Assembly: GCA_965197585.1 (NCBI GenBank)
Contig: OZ240215.1
Coordinates: 3,328,001-3,392,000 of the forward strand
From: Dehalococcoidia bacterium
GTDB lineage: Bacteria > Chloroflexota > Dehalococcoidia > Plut-88900
Reading direction: 5' to 3'
Length of the DNA: 64,000 bases
The notes beneath the pieces were generated by a model that saw only the letters and a program-made list of their open reading frames with translations, ran no database searches and was not told where the DNA came from. This document shows, in pieces, positions 29,148-54,475 of this stretch (position 1 is its first letter; every line of letters starts with the position of its first letter). Position numbers and translations under genes: made by a program.

Positions 29148-30197
29148 CTAACGTGTAACCGCCATGGTGCCTTTGGGTGCATCTACTATCTGTCCTATCA
29201 CCCTTGCCCCGACCACTCCATGCTCGACCAATGCTGCCATCAACCTACCGGCCTTTTCTTCCGACACGGAAATTAGCAGTCCCCCGGAGGTCTGCGCATC
29301 CGCCAACAATACCTTTAACGGGTCGGGTATTTCTGCTTCCCAGACCACGCTGTCCCTCAACGAGTCCAAGTTCCGGAGCGTGCCGCCGGGGGCTATCCCC
29401 TGCTCGGCCAGGGCACGGGCCCCGGGAATAAGCGGCACGTCGTTCAGCACAATCCGGGCCCCGACCCCGCTTCCCTCCACCATCTCACGTAAGTGCCCAA
29501 GAAGCCCGAAACCCGTGATGTCCGTGCAAGCGTTCACCCCGACCCCAACCATCGCCTCCGATGCGCCTTTGTTCAACTCTGCCATCAGCTCGACGACGCT
29601 GCGCTCCGTGTCTGCGTCGGACTTTCCGGCCTTCAGGGCGGTGGTAATGATTCCGGTGCCGATGGGCTTGGTCAGCACCAACCGGTCTCCCGGTCGGGCG
29701 TCCGCGTTGGTGATCTGCTCTCCGGGCCTCACTAATCCTGTAACGGCGATGCCGTATTTTGGCTCGACGTCATCGATGGTGTGGCCGCCGGCAATAATGG
29801 CTCCCGCCTCAGTCATCTTGTCGGCCCCGCCTTTGAGGATGCTGCCAAGGATGTCTTTGGGAAGGCCTATGGGGAAACCCACTATGTTGAGCCCCATAAG
29901 CGGCGTGGCGCCCATGGCATAGATGTCGCTCAGGGAGTTGGCTGCAGCTATGGCCCCGAACCAGTAAGGATCGTCAACGATGGGAGGGAAGAAGTCGACA
30001 CTCTGGACCAAGGCTATGGAATCGTTCAGCCTGTAAACAGCAGAGTCATCCGACGTGCCCGATCCCACGATAAGGTTCGGGTCGTCTATTTTGGGGAGGC
30101 TCTTCAGGACCTGGACCAGGTCCTCGGGGCTGAATTTGGAAGCTCAGCCCGCGCAGTGAGCGAGTTCGGTGAGTCTAATCTCTTTGACTTCTGCCAA
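29148..30197 (-). CDS. selD: Selenide, water dikinase (selenoprotein; UGA-Sec at codon 18)
   Basis: Reading through TGA at 30144-30146 gives MAEVKEIRLTELAHCAG-U-ASKFSP...; DFFPPIVDDP, ANSLSDIYAMG, TDITGFGLLGH, DAQTSGGLL; downstream hairpin AGGACCTG-GTC-CAGGTCCT. Confidence 0.93.
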
Positions 30198-48697: not shown

Positions 48698-49555
48698 ATG
48701 AACGTTAGACGCTTCGCCAGCAATCCGATTATCCATCTCGGTTCACACGCTGGTATGGGTGGCAACGTAAACGGGCCATCCCTCATCCAAGCCCCCGGTT
48801 GGATCGACCGACCCCTGGGCAGGTACTACCTCTATTTTGCCCATCACCAGGGCGACTACATCCATCTCGCCTACTCGGACAGCCTGGAAGGGCCGTGGCG
48901 GATCTACCAGCCAGGGACCCTGCATATTGAGGAGTCCTACTGCTACAACCACATCGCTTCCCCGGACGTGCACGTGGATGAGACCAACCGACAGGTCCGC
49001 ATGTACTATCATGGATGGGTTGGTGAAGAGGTACAGGGGACCAAGGTGGCCCTCTCCGATGACGGCATCAGATTCATAGCACGAGCTGGCAACCTAGGAG
49101 AGCCCTACTTCCGCCTGTTCCGCTGGGGCGGGTACTTCTACGCCCTGGCAATGCCTGGAATCTTCTACCGGTCGAAGGACGGCCTGACAGGGTTCGAGGA
49201 GGGGCCAACGTTGTTCACTTCCGATATGCGCCACTCGGCGGTGCGAGTTGTCGGCAATGAGGCAGAGGTCTACTACACCAACGCCTACGCCCAGCCCGAA
49301 CGAACCCTTCGCTCCCGAATCGACCTCAGCTGGGACTGGACTCGGTGGACCGCCTCCGAGCCGGAGGTGGTGCTGGAACCTGAAATGAAGTACGAGGGTG
49401 TAGACCTGCCTCAGGCGCCTTCCGCAAGAGGCGCCGTCATGGAGCCGGTGCGTCAGTTGAGAGACCCGGCGATATTCCAAGTCGGTGAGTCCGTCTATCT
49501 GCTGTACTCGGTGGCGGGTGAACAGGGCATAGCGATAGCTGAACTGCTCCAATAA
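48698..49555 (+). CDS. Beta-propeller glycoside hydrolase-like protein (GH43/GH130-like fold)
   Basis: NGPSLI, YYLYFAHH, HIASPDV, QLRDPAIF, LLYSVAGE. Confidence 0.7.
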   Translation: MNVRRFASNPIIHLGSHAGMGGNVNGPSLIQAPGWIDRPLGRYYLYFAHHQGDYIHLAYSDSLEGPWRIYQPGTLHIEESYCYNHIASPDVHVDETNRQVRMYYHGWVGEEVQGTKVALSDDGIRFIARAGNLGEPYFRLFRWGGYFYALAMPGIFYRSKDGLTGFEEGPTLFTSDMRHSAVRVVGNEAEVYYTNAYAQPERTLRSRIDLSWDWTRWTASEPEVVLEPEMKYEGVDLPQAPSARGAVMEPVRQLRDPAIFQVGESVYLLYSVAGEQGIAIAELLQ

Positions 49556-50031
49556 AGGGTCCACCGGATGGGCCTGGGCAGCACCTCGTGCCTTCTAAGA
49601 GACCACCGTCCAAACCGCGTGCTCCAAAAGGTCAAGTTCCCTGCCTTATAAACGGGGATGAGTGCCCATCTAGAACGTCTCGCATTCTCAGCGGATACCG
49701 GGGACGACGGCTGCACGATGTGCGGCAAGACGGGCCAACGTGGGAATACTGCTTGAACCGACGAAATAGTCCGTGCCGCCGACGCAAGAGGTCAGCGGGA
49801 TTGACCATCCAGGACAGCGGCCCACGAGTAGACAACTTTTGGTGTCTATTGCGAATCAGGCTTGAACGCTCGCAAAACAGCGAACTCAGGTGTAGCTAAC
49901 CTGCTTGGGGCCCGGTCTTGCCAGTAGCTGCAGATTACATTGGTATCGAAAATTATCAATTTGCTCACCTTCTCTCTTATCCCGTAGATGGCTGAAAAGG
50001 TGTATGGAGTGATGAAGGCTGTTAGGGGCTA

Positions 50032-51312
50032 TTACGAGGTTGCCGGCGCAAGTGCGGGCACACCCGATATGTACAGTCTTCGCGGTGTCGGTGTAAAGAC
50101 ACTGAGAACCATCACTCCCAGGAACGCCGCGCTTCCAACCAGTAGTATCCACCCGGGGTTGAACACGTCGGCCAGGACCCCGTTAGCGAAGTATGAAAAT
50201 GCCATAATCCCGCCGGCGTGAATCAGGTATATGCTGGTGATTCGACCACGAAGGTGATCAGGAGCTACCGACTGAATCATGATCGTAGCCATGGTCATGA
50301 AACCCGTATGAGAGATGCCTATAATCACGGTCCCCAACAGTGCCAGTGGCAGGGTGGGCGCTATTGCCAGAACGAAATTGCCTAGAGCGCTGACCACGGC
50401 CGTCACCAGGAAGAGTCGTCCTATCGCTGATTCCCTTCGCATTGGAGCAATTGCAACGGAGATTAATAGCGCACCAAAACCAACCATCATATGCATGTAG
50501 GCTACGCCGCCACCGCCGGAACCCAACCGGTTTTCCGAAATCGCTGGCACGAGCGATTCAAATGACATTATCAAAGTTCAGTGGAACAGCACTATCAGGA
50601 TGATGCTTCGTAGCACCTTATGGCCGTAGACGTATTTGAATCCTGAAAAAGCGTTGTCAAGCAAACCTTTGTCAGGATCTATGATGCCCGTAGATCGAGT
50701 GCGTATCCGGAGTACGAAGAATACCCCTACGCCGTAGAAAGCAGTGCAAGTGAAAAATATCCATTCCAGACCGACCACATCTATAATCGGTGCAATCACT
50801 CCGGGGCCTATCAGTCGGGTAGCGTAGTAGCCCGCGTTAACCAGGATATATGCGTTCGGCAGGACTTGCCCCGGTACCAGATTGGCAGCCAGAGATTCGA
50901 TGGCACCCATGTGGACTGCCCTGGCGCATCCGTTGACGAAGGCCAGAGCAAGAATGTGCCATGGTTGCACCACGCCAGTGAGGACCAGAAGGGCCAGGGT
51001 CAAGCTATGCAAAAGGCTGACGACGTAGGCTAACGTCAGTATGTTTCGTCGTATGAACCGGTCGGTTAAGTATCCGGCGATGATAGGTACAACGAACCAG
51101 GGGAGCATAGCTACGAGAAATATCGCTCCCACCCAGGTGCTGGGATTACTGTCAGCCAGGTTGAAAATCAGCCACCCTTCGGCGGCTCCCATGGCCCACG
51201 ATGCCGATTCGCCGAAGATGTGCCCGAACCACATCACTCGATAATCCCGGTGGGCTAGGGCCGGCAAAAAACGCTGGCCCGCGTTCCGCTGAGCGCGCAT
51301 GATGCCTAACAT
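50032..51312 (-). CDS. MFS transporter with in-frame TGA at 50578-50580 (Sec readthrough candidate or pseudogene)
   Basis: ORFs 50578-51312 and 50032-50574 are in frame (...LIVLFH*TLIMSFES...); AGYLTDRFIRR and Q..APDHLRGR MFS motifs. Confidence 0.8.
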
Positions 51313-52188
51313 CTAGCTGCACCAGGTCTAGACGTGCCCACAATCATTCCCAGTAGCCACAGCTTTTTCCCCTCCAACGAAAACAAGCACACGAATTGCT
51401 GCCTCCACGCGAGACCTCAGCCACTACAGAAGGACAACTAGGGGATATCCTAGCACCAAACGCGAGCCATTACCTCGGGAATAGTGGGTGTAAGAGGACA
51501 ACAGTTTGGCTGGGTAACCTGGATTTGGACCGAGGCTTACGGGTTCAGCAGCCGAGGCTACAAGAGCTGCCAAGGGTACCTGGCGTCTGGAATACCGGCG
51601 CCGTTCACTGAAGGGCAGGATGTTGTGACTTATCGATTGGATGTCCTGTCCTTTTGTATTGACATTACCCATTGCCAGGTTCGCAGTACAATACGCGCCG
51701 GCCCACCACCCCGCACAAATGCCCAAATCTCAATCTTGCCACTGCGTCTGAGCACATAAGCATACCCTTCAAAATTCCGTTTCGTCACCATGCGAAAATA
51801 GCGTCGGGCCCCTGCCTCGCAGCATCGGCAGCGTAAATTCTGTGGGCAGATAGGTTAAACAACTCGAATGGCACCCAGTGACCACACATGGTGCTCCGAG
51901 TAATGCCGCCAGCCCGATTTCCGCTTTGGTATAATTAGTTGAATCACAATTAACATTTCTTTTTCTGACGAAAGCCTAAACACGAAGGTCCCAATTTGCG
52001 CTCCACAATGAAACAGTTCAAATCACAGGTGTGGATCGCAAAATCACTCCGGAAGAGTACACAAAACTACAGCTCATCGACACAGATTTCGTCCTCGCGA
52101 GGTTTTAAGCGGCTAGCCAAGGCCGAAGAGGTGGAGCATTTTCCTCATTTCCCCTATAGGTAGATTCTTAGTCAGCTGGTACATCCTA

Positions 52189-53172
52189 GTGCCGGCTATG
52201 GTGGGCATGGGCATAGCGGCAGGTGTGCTGGGCTTTGTCTACCTGACTCCCGGCAAACCCCAGATTGGGGTCATAGAGGTGCCCTACACCGTCATCAATG
52301 ATCGCTCTGCCTTCGCTATCGGCCAATACATCGACTACGCCCGTCGAGATGACTCCATAAAGGCTGTGGTGATTAAACTGAGCACTCCCGGTGGAGGCGC
52401 CTCAGCCAGCGAACGCTTATACAACGAGACCCGCAGGCTCCGTGAAGAAAAGCCGGTGGTGCTAGTTATGGGTAACCTGGTAGCTAGCGGCGGCTACATG
52501 ATGTCGATGGGCGCATCCTACACCTACGCTCAGACATCTTCACTGGTGGGGAACGTGGGAGTGATTTTCTCCACGGGCCCCCTGATCCCGGAACTTCCCG
52601 ACGAGGGGCTGGTCTTCAGCAGCCCCAACAAGCTGGATGGAGGCACCAGGAGAGAGTGGATCGGGACGGTGGACATGCTTAATGAAGCCTTTGTACAAAT
52701 GGTGGTTAGCGAACGGGGAGACAAACTACGTATTTCCAGGGATGAACTTGGCACGGGACGCCTTTATCCCGGAATGGTTGCAGTGAGACTGGGATTGGCT
52801 GACGAGGTTGGAAGTTATAGTGACGCGATCGAAAAGGCCGCCGACTTGGCGGGAATCTCCAACTACGGATTCGTAGACGTAAACTTGGAAGTGTTGCAGG
52901 AATTCGTCCAGGAGCTCGATTTTGTCTTTACACTCGAAGGCGGAGATGGAGACCTGTCGGGAGCCCTTTCCTTCCTATCCAATCCCTCCCGAGACGGGGA
53001 GCCCCTGCCCTCGGAAGGCGAAACGGGTAGCGCCCTGACAACTCTCCGTACCCTGAGAGACTTGATGCTGGACCAGGGCCTCGGAGCAGACGGGGAGGGA
53101 GCCCTCCCGGGGTTACCCGTCGACATACAGCGCCCGGAAATCTATTACCTGTACGTTGGGTATGACCCTTAA
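52189..53172 (+). CDS. S49 family (SppA-like) peptidase
   Basis: KAVVIKLSTPGG, KPVV, ASGGY, GNVGV, LGLADEVG. Confidence 0.88.
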   Translation: MPAMVGMGIAAGVLGFVYLTPGKPQIGVIEVPYTVINDRSAFAIGQYIDYARRDDSIKAVVIKLSTPGGGASASERLYNETRRLREEKPVVLVMGNLVASGGYMMSMGASYTYAQTSSLVGNVGVIFSTGPLIPELPDEGLVFSSPNKLDGGTRREWIGTVDMLNEAFVQMVVSERGDKLRISRDELGTGRLYPGMVAVRLGLADEVGSYSDAIEKAADLAGISNYGFVDVNLEVLQEFVQELDFVFTLEGGDGDLSGALSFLSNPSRDGEPLPSEGETGSALTTLRTLRDLMLDQGLGADGEGALPGLPVDIQRPEIYYLYVGYDP

Positions 53173-54475
53173 ACTAGCATCTCTCTTCCTATTCCCCATA
53201 ATTGCCGCCGCTACTTTTGCGGGCATATTCTTTTTCTTTTACCAAGGCGCCTATGACCCTCCGCCTTCGTTGGATATTCCCTATGAGCAGATAACTTCGC
53301 CCGCGGTGACCCCCGTTGCTCCCGTTGATACGGGGGCGGCCCAGGTTCGGAAGGGACTGCTGGTCGTCGACGCTCTGCACTACAACTCCTTCAGTGAAAG
53401 TGAAATTGCCACCCTCAGCTCCTGGGTAACCGACAGAGGTTATGACGTTGAATTCATTGGCAACTTTTTCGGTGTGCTGGCAAAGACCAGACTGGAACAG
53501 ATGGAAAAGAAGCTGCGGGAAGCCGACAGCTTCCTAGTCATGCTTCCCCGAACTACCTACCTGGACGAGGAAGTGGACTTGGTGGGACGGTTCGTCGAGA
53601 AGGGCGGAAAACTGGTGCTGGTGTCTGATCCGACCCGGCCCAACCGAATAAATGCCCTGGCTAAGAGATTTGGTGTGGAGTTCCAACCCGACTATCTCTA
53701 CAACACCGTGGAATACGACCTGAACTTCAGGCACATATTCGTTAGAGATTTCCAGCCCGCCCCCCTTACCAGTGGCCTCGAGACTATAGCCCTTTATATC
53801 GCCGGGTCGGTGCAGTCTTCCGGTGACGGCTTGGCCTTTACCGATACAAATACGGAGTCTTCTTTGGGGAACATTGCAGAGGAATTCAACCCCATTTCCC
53901 TGGGAGACAAGAGGAACGTCCTGGCTATTGCTGATTTCACATTTATGGTTCCTCCCTATAACTCTCTACTGGATAACGACAGGCTGTTGTCAAATCTGGC
54001 GGACTTTCTGACCGACGGTCAACGTGAGTTTGACCTCGGCGATTTTCCCCACTTCTATGAGGGCGACCCCGGAGACATTACCGACATCCTGTTGGGCCAG
54101 CCTTCTCTCTGGAACATTGGTCTCGAGATGAGAAACGGCCTCACGGTCTACGGTCTATCCTCCAGGATTGGTGAAGGGGAAGACGTGAGCCAGGACACGG
54201 TGTTCCTGGGCCTGTATGAAGACTCACGCATGGTGAGCCAATATCTACTGGCTGCCGGCGTTAGCATCGACGAGGCAATTACCCTGCCCTTTGCCCCGGA
54301 AATCGACAGGGAAGGAACAGCGATCATCCTGCTTCATAGGGACCAAGGCCGATACGTGCTGGTAGTCCTCGGGGAAACACCCGTTGCCTTGACCGGGGCT
54401 GTGAGCAGCTTGTTCAGCGGTGAATTCAGAGACGAACTAGTTAGCGACTATCTGGGGTTGCGTAATAGTCAATGA
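53156..54475 (+). CDS. Membrane-anchored protein, DUF4350/GldG-like domain
   Basis: N-terminal TM; VVDALHYN; FVEKGGKLVLVSDP; DNDRLLSNLADFL. Confidence 0.65.
   Translation: MGMTLKLASLFLFPIIAAATFAGIFFFFYQGAYDPPPSLDIPYEQITSPAVTPVAPVDTGAAQVRKGLLVVDALHYNSFSESEIATLSSWVTDRGYDVEFIGNFFGVLAKTRLEQMEKKLREADSFLVMLPRTTYLDEEVDLVGRFVEKGGKLVLVSDPTRPNRINALAKRFGVEFQPDYLYNTVEYDLNFRHIFVRDFQPAPLTSGLETIALYIAGSVQSSGDGLAFTDTNTESSLGNIAEEFNPISLGDKRNVLAIADFTFMVPPYNSLLDNDRLLSNLADFLTDGQREFDLGDFPHFYEGDPGDITDILLGQPSLWNIGLEMRNGLTVYGLSSRIGEGEDVSQDTVFLGLYEDSRMVSQYLLAAGVSIDEAITLPFAPEIDREGTAIILLHRDQGRYVLVVLGETPVALTGAVSSLFSGEFRDELVSDYLGLRNSQ

Follow-up and report, generated by a model that had tools for sequence, protein, structure and literature searches.

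What does a UGA codon signify when it interrupts an otherwise intact gene for a membrane transporter: a stop, the mark of a nonsense mutation or a codon with its own amino acid? The question is raised by a gene in a 64,000-nucleotide (nt) stretch from a Dehalococcoidia bacterium (GenBank assembly GCA_965197585.1, contig OZ240215.1, positions 3,328,001 to 3,392,000 of the forward strand). That whole stretch is termed the window here, and positions are counted from its first letter. The gene encodes a major facilitator superfamily (MFS) transporter, and comparison with its relatives leads to the answer that it is very probably a genuine, intact selenoprotein gene in which UGA codon 245 is decoded as selenocysteine (Sec). 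This degree of confidence belongs to the selenoprotein claim and not to what is suggested further below about function.

On the minus strand the reading frame extends from an ATG at 51312 to a stop at 50032–50034 and contains a single TGA, in the context LFH-TGA-TLIMSFES, just as an initial annotation made from the letters of the window had described; the listing of open reading frames (ORFs) cuts the gene there into pieces of 244 and 180 amino acids (aa). When the TGA is read through, the product matches the Pfam families MFS_3 (PF05977; 1e-37, 130.2 bits, cut-off 27) and MFS_1 (PF07690; 77.5 bits, cut-off 33.4), and its AlphaFold2 model is a 12-helix MFS fold with a predicted local distance difference test score (pLDDT) of 88.4 and a predicted template modelling score (pTM) of 0.88. 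Foldseek found 447 PDB matches for it at E of 0.001 or better; the best 50 of these 447 are all MFS-type transporters, and the best matches include the drug or amine:H+ antiporters VMAT2, NorA and MdfA. With profile scores above the curated cut-offs and a 12-helix model, the protein is a member of the MFS. As to which member, an NCBIfam scan gave nine matches with E values up to 0.001 and no equivalog cut-off was reached, the scores for the EntS enterobactin exporter (NF007792; 76.7 bits, cut-off 324) and for the TIGR00900 H+ antiporter subfamily (120.3 bits, cut-off 319.6) both lying below.

What amino acid stands at the position of the UGA in proteins whose genes lack it? Of 269 matches in a large protein collection the best 120 were aligned (61–79% identity; sources include the SAR202 cluster and Dehalococcoidia), and it is Cys in every one of these 120, an outcome that bears out the initial annotation. 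The flanks are nearly as constant in the same 120, with His at −1, Met at +4 and Ser at +5 in all, and Glu at +7 in 119. The His-Cys pair is retained in 11 of 11 paralogs at 42–45% identity. In 28 distant MFS_3 proteins (23–30% identity) the column is mostly Ser, Val, Gly or Ala, and Cys in one. Being universal in the homologs and paralogs and rare in distant MFS_3, the Cys characterizes a subfamily that is specific to the lineage and is no general MFS feature, and the UGA and the conserved Cys make up the Cys/Sec pair of a bacterial selenoprotein gene.

Is the base itself sound? The stretch or part of it is contained in 20 sequencing runs from 10 studies, and contigs of four public runs from three studies (X1, X4, X15 and X16) bridge the TGA codon. 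Among the 40 of 67 base differences that are listed for the run contigs, none lies within 50536–50590, an outcome in favour of the read support that the initial annotation had left to be seen; the closest of those listed, at 50535, is a Glu-to-Gln change also seen in one of the related genomes (G010).

Six-frame searches of whole genomes, 12 from the order and 401 from the class, were made for orthologs, with the genome that carries the window designated G000. An ortholog with exactly one internal TGA was found in the same six species-level genomes, of three genera, in both searches: four of genus g1 (G000, G009, G011 and G010, among them with 100, 100, 99 and 96% identity), one of g2 (G002, 87%) and one of g3 (G001, 74%). 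The TGA column is identical in all six. Cys-type paralogs aside, the class sample held no further ortholog beyond 1e-100, and a scan of genome contigs returned the same five foreign TGA loci together with five Cys-type orthologs that have TGC or TGT. Traces of others may be visible in protein collections. Seven of 17 fragments examined, out of 41 matches, are protein clusters that begin exactly at MSFESLVPAISEN, the start that a gene caller yields downstream of the TGA; some of these clusters, at 87–88% identity, have no counterpart in the six genomes.

Are both halves of the gene in use? In four pairwise comparisons the ratio of nonsynonymous to synonymous substitution rates (dN/dS) is 0.10–0.17 upstream of the TGA and 0.14–0.22 downstream of it, with the synonymous rate (dS) reaching 1.1–1.6 in the pairs that involve G001, the most distant, and none of the six orthologs has a second stop or a frameshift. 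Purifying selection acts on both halves of the gene. The independent TGA orthologs that the initial annotation had envisaged thus exist, with the frame kept on both sides of the codon. TGA is meanwhile an ordinary stop in this genome, where it ends 615 out of 2096 open frames with a length of 300 or more codons. The low dN/dS on both sides, the lack of further stops and the usual role of TGA together exclude a recent nonsense mutation and a reassigned code.

Is there a signal that could recruit the Sec machinery? The initial annotation had pointed to a hairpin starting 18 nt after the UGA with its loop at 26 nt and G as the second loop base, and this is indeed what is found: the sequence GAAUCGCU-CGUGCC-AGCGAUUU can form an 8-bp stem, one G-U pair included, that closes a 6-nt loop (−7.8 kcal/mol). 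The base after the G at loop position 2 is U, and this G-U, 27–28 nt after the UGA, is supplied by the GUG codon of Val255 (50548–50550). For comparison there is the consensus model of the bacterial selenocysteine insertion sequence (bSECIS) in a 2026 review (PMC13188914; here and below, what is said of it refers to the portion of its text and catalogue that was accessible). According to its Fig. 2 legend the loop has 3–9 nt, the stem 4–16 bp and one of the first two loop positions a G, and the spacing given is 16–37 nt with a minimum free energy of −7.5 kcal/mol or lower. The hairpin agrees with all of these. Like the E. coli fdhF-type and consensus elements described there, it is a stem-loop in coding sequence just 3′ of the UGA, with an early loop G-U, a 26-nt spacing and an energy below −7.5 kcal/mol; the likeness is one of geometry and, in contrast to the consensus, the optional pair N1-N2 that closes the loop is not formed here (C and C). 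In Rfam, searched with 49500–52300 at E up to 1, no bacterial SECIS family was returned, and the sole match, SNORA5 at E 0.94, is put down to chance.

The case for the hairpin comes from conservation and not from fold energy, as the shuffling and background tests given below are near chance. Each base of a 33-nt block that spans codons 249–259 is the same in all six TGA genomes. Between G000 and G001, 53% of same-amino-acid codons across the gene differ synonymously, and none of 12 does at +4 to +16 (P about 1e-4), an interval that was preset by the hairpin of the initial annotation. A hairpin fitting the model is found in none of 13 Cys-type genes (eight paralogs and five orthologs), the synonymous sites of which vary freely at this place, so that the hairpin of the TGA genes is conserved beyond the needs of the protein. 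At residue 255 the Sec forms have Val; in the same best 120 of 269 homologs, all Cys forms, this residue is Leu in 118 and Val in one.

How would such a gene have arisen? In the tree the Sec clade is nested within the Cys-type subfamily, with a single origin of the Sec forms. The Sec gene would descend from a Cys-containing ancestor inside a subfamily specific to SAR202/Dehalococcoidia in which His244-Cys245 is invariant, and a change from Leu to Val at residue 255 would have accompanied the switch from Cys to Sec, as the loop owes its G-U to the Val codon GUG. Among those 120 just one Cys form has Val255, namely P0003, from a 16016-base contig in ENA, which is sister to the G001 Sec form with a value of 97 in the Shimodaira–Hasegawa-like approximate likelihood ratio test (SH-aLRT). 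Its retained Val255 and its grouping with that Sec form suggest that P0003 may be a revertant from Sec to Cys.

Does the genome have the means to insert Sec? As the initial annotation had looked for, selA, selB and selC are present, and with them a Sec-type selD: a tRNA-Sec, a SelA match of 449.7 bits and a SelB winged-helix domain in a 620-aa frame were found, and all four genes are in the same genome. Sec-type selD is also present in each of the five other genomes with a TGA-containing MFS gene. The selD of this genome lies in the window, about 20 kb from the MFS gene, and itself contains an in-frame TGA, in the context AHCAG-U-ASKF, with a GGACCU/AGGUCC hairpin whose loop, read by eye, follows after 26 nt, so that the comparison between the two hairpins drawn in the initial annotation holds. 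(Usual ORF calling places the start of selD at 30068, downstream of its TGA.) A linkage of selD with the MFS gene was considered and rejected, with the two at unrelated positions in G001 and G002 and unlinked also in G010. By comparison with these known components, we infer that SelB together with the hairpin would decode UGA 245: recruited by the stem-loop that starts 18 nt downstream, SelB would deliver Sec-tRNA(Sec) to the codon.

A read-through scan of the genome looked for TGA flanked by coding sequence and then a hairpin; it is crude, missed selD and gives no complete selenoproteome. Of 71 cases passing the coding filter 13 are candidates, and the MFS gene is one. Seven of the 12 others belong to known selenoprotein families, namely Rdx (Rdx/SelW-like), GrdB, ArsC-like, rhodanese, thioredoxin-like with NHL repeats, UGSC and GrdB-like (GrdB/PrdB-like). 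These known-family genes are at G000:C1 positions 2836126, 1580009, 3126926 and 3128006 on the plus strand and 1537403, 1081975 and 102970 on the minus strand, their hairpin loops come 17–25 nt after the UGA, and the lineage is selenoprotein-rich. The remaining five comprise a CoA-transferase, a luciferase-like monooxygenase, an M20 peptidase and two that are apparently spurious. In the M20 peptidase/amidohydrolase gene (L091, G000:C1:1539389–1540612, minus) the TGA is inside a His-Ala-Cys-Gly-His-Asp-type motif, normally a metal-ligand region, and one TGA is retained in 10 of the order's 12 genomes, with identities as low as 67%. The luciferase-like monooxygenase gene (L090, G000:C1:1158477–1159484, minus) has one in-frame TGA that is retained in 9 of the 12, all of one genus, at 80–100% identity, and paralogs at 41–45% lack the stop. 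For the CoA-transferase family gene (L083, G000:C1:922616–923590, plus) the TGA is retained in 11 of the 12, down to 60% identity; extra stops in some rows are probably within an over-long N-terminal extension. M20, peptidase or PF01546, luciferase-like monooxygenase and CoA-transferase are unmentioned in the accessible part of the 2026 review (PMC13188914).

Several observations weigh against decoding of the UGA as Sec. The fold of the hairpin is not significant (z = −0.58), 45 of 200 shuffled sequences folding at least equally well, and an equivalent hairpin follows 1125 of 20,000 random TGA triplets of the genome (5.6%), its stem having at least 8 bp after 406 of them (2.0%). As the hairpin is invariant, it is without compensatory covariation. 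The six TGA genomes are all of one family and their Sec forms have a single origin; what is observed is accordingly one evolutionary event seen through later divergence. In JGI metagenome contigs the degenerate DNA pattern F-H-TGA-x-L-V/I-M-S-F-E/D found no extra Sec forms; its two matches are due to chance, in AT-rich DNA outside any MFS gene. Two of the bridging runs, X15 and X16, are RNA libraries whose contigs span the TGA, a weak hint of transcription and no proof, as DNA may be present in such libraries and the contigs may originate from it. Finally, the case for selenium incorporation and for a full-length protein is built from comparisons of genomes. How then do other explanations fare?

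One is that the gene is split, with translation ending at the UGA to give a 244-residue N-domain and restarting at the ATG of codon 249 to give a 178-residue C-domain, and with the halves then assembling. That ATG comes 9 nt after the TGA, gene callers do predict the 178-residue protein from it, and the purifying selection seen downstream would fit equally. However, the cut would be in the middle of helix 7 with loss of the invariant Cys column and three residues, by eye there is no Shine-Dalgarno-like purine run before the ATG, and in this genome UGA stands for Sec in many genes besides this one. Nor does splitting account for the invariant hairpin, for the change from Leu to Val at 255 or for the lack of a hairpin in the Cys forms, and it is considered very unlikely.

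A second explanation accepts a full-length protein and denies that it is a selenoprotein, the UGA being read without SelB as Trp or Cys through near-cognate decoding or another signal. Conservation of the TGA, together with selection on the two halves, does show translation through the codon and does not of itself specify which residue is inserted. Nevertheless, the column is invariant Cys in homologs, making a classical Sec/Cys pair, and the hairpin downstream has bacterial SECIS geometry. TGA is a normal stop in a genome with full Sec machinery, and all six genomes with the TGA-MFS gene have Sec-type selD. The chance that SelB has no part in it is accordingly put very low.

The main alternative named in the initial annotation was that a decaying island had acquired a TGY>TGA nonsense mutation. 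A single base suffices to turn TGC or TGT, the codons in the Cys relatives, into TGA, but a pseudogene would hardly have kept that TGA in six genomes of three genera, down to 74% protein identity, with dS above 1, no second stop or frameshift and a downstream dN/dS of 0.14–0.22; with values of 0.10–0.22 over the two sides at such divergence this alternative is excluded, and we give it next to no credence. A sequencing or assembly error has a negligible chance of accounting for a codon that recurs in five other assemblies and in the bridging contigs of four runs from three studies. Decoding of codon 245 as Sec is the reading adopted in what follows, and the coordinates that matter for it are collected in Table 1.

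Table 1. Positions, within the 64,000-nt window, of the MFS gene and its decoding features, and of selD
Feature	Position	Strand	Remarks
MFS transporter gene	50032..51312	minus	426 codons + stop; Pfam MFS_3 and MFS_1; 12-helix fold
UGA codon 245, very probably read as selenocysteine	50578..50580	minus	transmembrane helix 7; Cys column; TGA in six genomes
Proposed bacterial SECIS hairpin	50538..50559	minus	arms 50552–50559 and 50538–50545; loop CGUGCC 50546–50551
Invariant 33-nt block, codons 249–259	50536..50568	minus	every base identical in 6/6 TGA genomes
selD (selenophosphate synthetase)	29151..30197	minus	itself a selenoprotein; TGA 30144–30146; Pfam AIRS, AIRS_C

Why would a transporter have Sec? 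In MFS proteins helix 7 lines the central cavity. In the AlphaFold2 model residue 245 is in a helix of residues 232–247, about 13 residues into helix 7 and just before a break at 248, and the Sec would therefore be within a transmembrane helix as the initial annotation had proposed. Helix 7 has a motif specific to the subfamily, His-Sec-x3-Met-x2-Glu, and with the spacing i, i+4, i+7 residues 245, 249 and 252 are expected on one face of it. Met69, Arg131, His244, Cys/Sec245, Met249, Glu252, Met275, Met339 and His365 are invariant in the subfamily and not so in distant MFS_3. Sec245 with His244, Met249, Glu252, Met69, Met275, Met339 and His365 would form a site for the transported species, and a set of His, Sec and Met with one carboxylate resembles soft-metal sites, for which reason a soft-metal or chalcogen substrate is suggested. 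With selenolate, imidazole and thioether ligands the candidates would be a soft metal ion (Cu(I), Zn or Hg), a metal chelate, or else a solute that contains sulfur or selenium; pathway cysteines are used by YeeE for thiosulfate. Glu252 would likely be the proton-coupling residue. The proposal that Sec245 binds the substrate or an ion within the translocation pathway, with a role in transport rather than in redox catalysis, is tentative and somewhat doubtful.

Against this view of its function it may be said that the cavity-facing position of residue 245 is taken from its place in the helix and from general MFS architecture, and that metal-homeostasis or sulfur genes are not conserved beside the MFS gene in the neighbourhoods compared across genomes. 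A residue-level match to the acidic residues of NorA or MdfA was sought and given up: a profile search of PDB sequences aligned only parts of domains (GlcP and NorA), and not helix 7.

Is any MFS protein with soft-metal ligands already known? The copper importer CcoA/CalT of Rhodobacter capsulatus has, according to the accessible part of PMC8406296, essential Met233xxxMet237 in transmembrane helix (TM) 7 and His261xxxMet265 in TM8. Both proteins are 12-helix MFS members with residues that can serve as soft-metal ligands, here His244 and Sec245xxxMet249 in helix 7 and a Met-His-Met-Met run in helix 8. However, TM7 here is UxxxM, with Sec for the first Met, and TM8 has MHMM, so that the CalT motif as such is not present; the TM8 HxxxM is out of register (His274xxxGly278) and His274 is Asn in G001, a further point against the proposed function. 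Also unlike CcoA, there are no cbb3-oxidase or copper genes near the MFS gene. The two were compared by motif, and the likeness is a working analogy.

Little is gained on the substrate from the surroundings of the gene. Synteny is found only within the genus, where an S49 peptidase gene, an ABC-auxiliary-like gene, one for a 285-aa unknown, a cupin gene and Rieske genes recur; the genes found beside it in other genera, and beside the Cys orthologs, are unrelated. As synteny does not reach beyond the genus, the neighbourhood was dropped as a clue. In G001 only, a tandem MFS_3 paralog with 49% identity and no internal stop (L047:4514–5854, plus) is directly downstream of the Sec-type gene. In the window a gap of about 880 nt (51313–52188) separates the divergent MFS and S49 peptidase genes, with no ORF of at least 150 aa and no Rfam match. 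Further away, at 53478–53561 on the minus strand, ARAGORN reports an 84-nt ‘tRNA-Asp (gtc)’ that is inside a 439-aa ORF (53156–54475); it is unusually long and may be a false call.

Have selenoproteins of this type been described? More than 100 bacterial selenoprotein families have been catalogued, mostly soluble redox enzymes (PMC13188914, the accessible part; PMC13326102). The transporters among them in the former comprise the SaoP ATP-binding cassette (ABC) permease (NF040733), YeeE/YedE (PF04143, GUxSG) and the SO_0444 Cu/Zn efflux protein (NF033936, UxC), together with a putative mercuric transport protein (PF02411, MerT-like), a cation-transporting P-type ATPase (TIGR01525), SaoX and SaoB, and most are linked to metal or metalloid handling. 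With these the MFS protein would share a Sec in or near the membrane transport pathway, Cys homologs and the bacterial SelB/SECIS mechanism, whereas its fold and superfamily are unrelated and its H-U motif has no second Cys or Sec nearby; none of these family models, SaoP NF040733 and SO_0444 NF033936 included, is among its nine NCBIfam matches. The accessible text and catalogue of the 2026 review (PMC13188914) contain no occurrence of MFS, major facilitator, antiporter, PF07690 or PF05977, in accord with the suggestion of the initial annotation that the family is undescribed. No MFS or transporter is named in the main texts of the BSepDB (PMC13326102) and deep-Sep papers, which do not extend to the supplementary family lists of large screens. 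Full-text literature searches yielded, judged by title and abstract, no paper on a Sec-containing MFS protein; ‘MFS transporter’ was not found among the matches listed for selenocysteine or in-frame UGA, and those joining SAR202 with selenocysteine were unrelated papers only.

The nearest relatives are the Cys-type members of the SAR202/Dehalococcoidia MFS_3 subfamily, which carry no annotation beyond ‘MFS transporter’ or ‘MFS family permease’. At 42–79% identity they have the same length and His-Cys-x3-Met-Ser-Phe-Glu in helix 7, but differ in having TGC or TGT for TGA, Leu for Val255 and no hairpin. The novelty lies in the protein family and in a Sec in mid-membrane in a secondary carrier; the mechanism of decoding and the logic of the change from Cys to Sec are standard.

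An MFS selenoprotein would add the largest family of secondary transporters to a list that in the accessible part of PMC13188914 has ABC, P-type, YeeE, MerT-like and SO_0444 proteins, and it would put a selenolate midway along a membrane helix. If the proposed role is true, this would be the first MFS transporter with selenocysteine in its binding site, and a case of Sec being employed for transport and not for redox catalysis. There is also a practical side. Public gene calls split the gene in two, and at this locus the transporter inventories of these abundant marine Chloroflexota are consequently in error. The invariant His-Cys/Sec dyad would mark a functional residue of a SAR202-specific transporter subfamily and offers a handle for a search for its substrate. 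At least three further TGA genes, each of them conserved, are present in the same genome and come from families that are absent from the accessible part of that review; the lineage seems rich in selenoproteins yet to be described.

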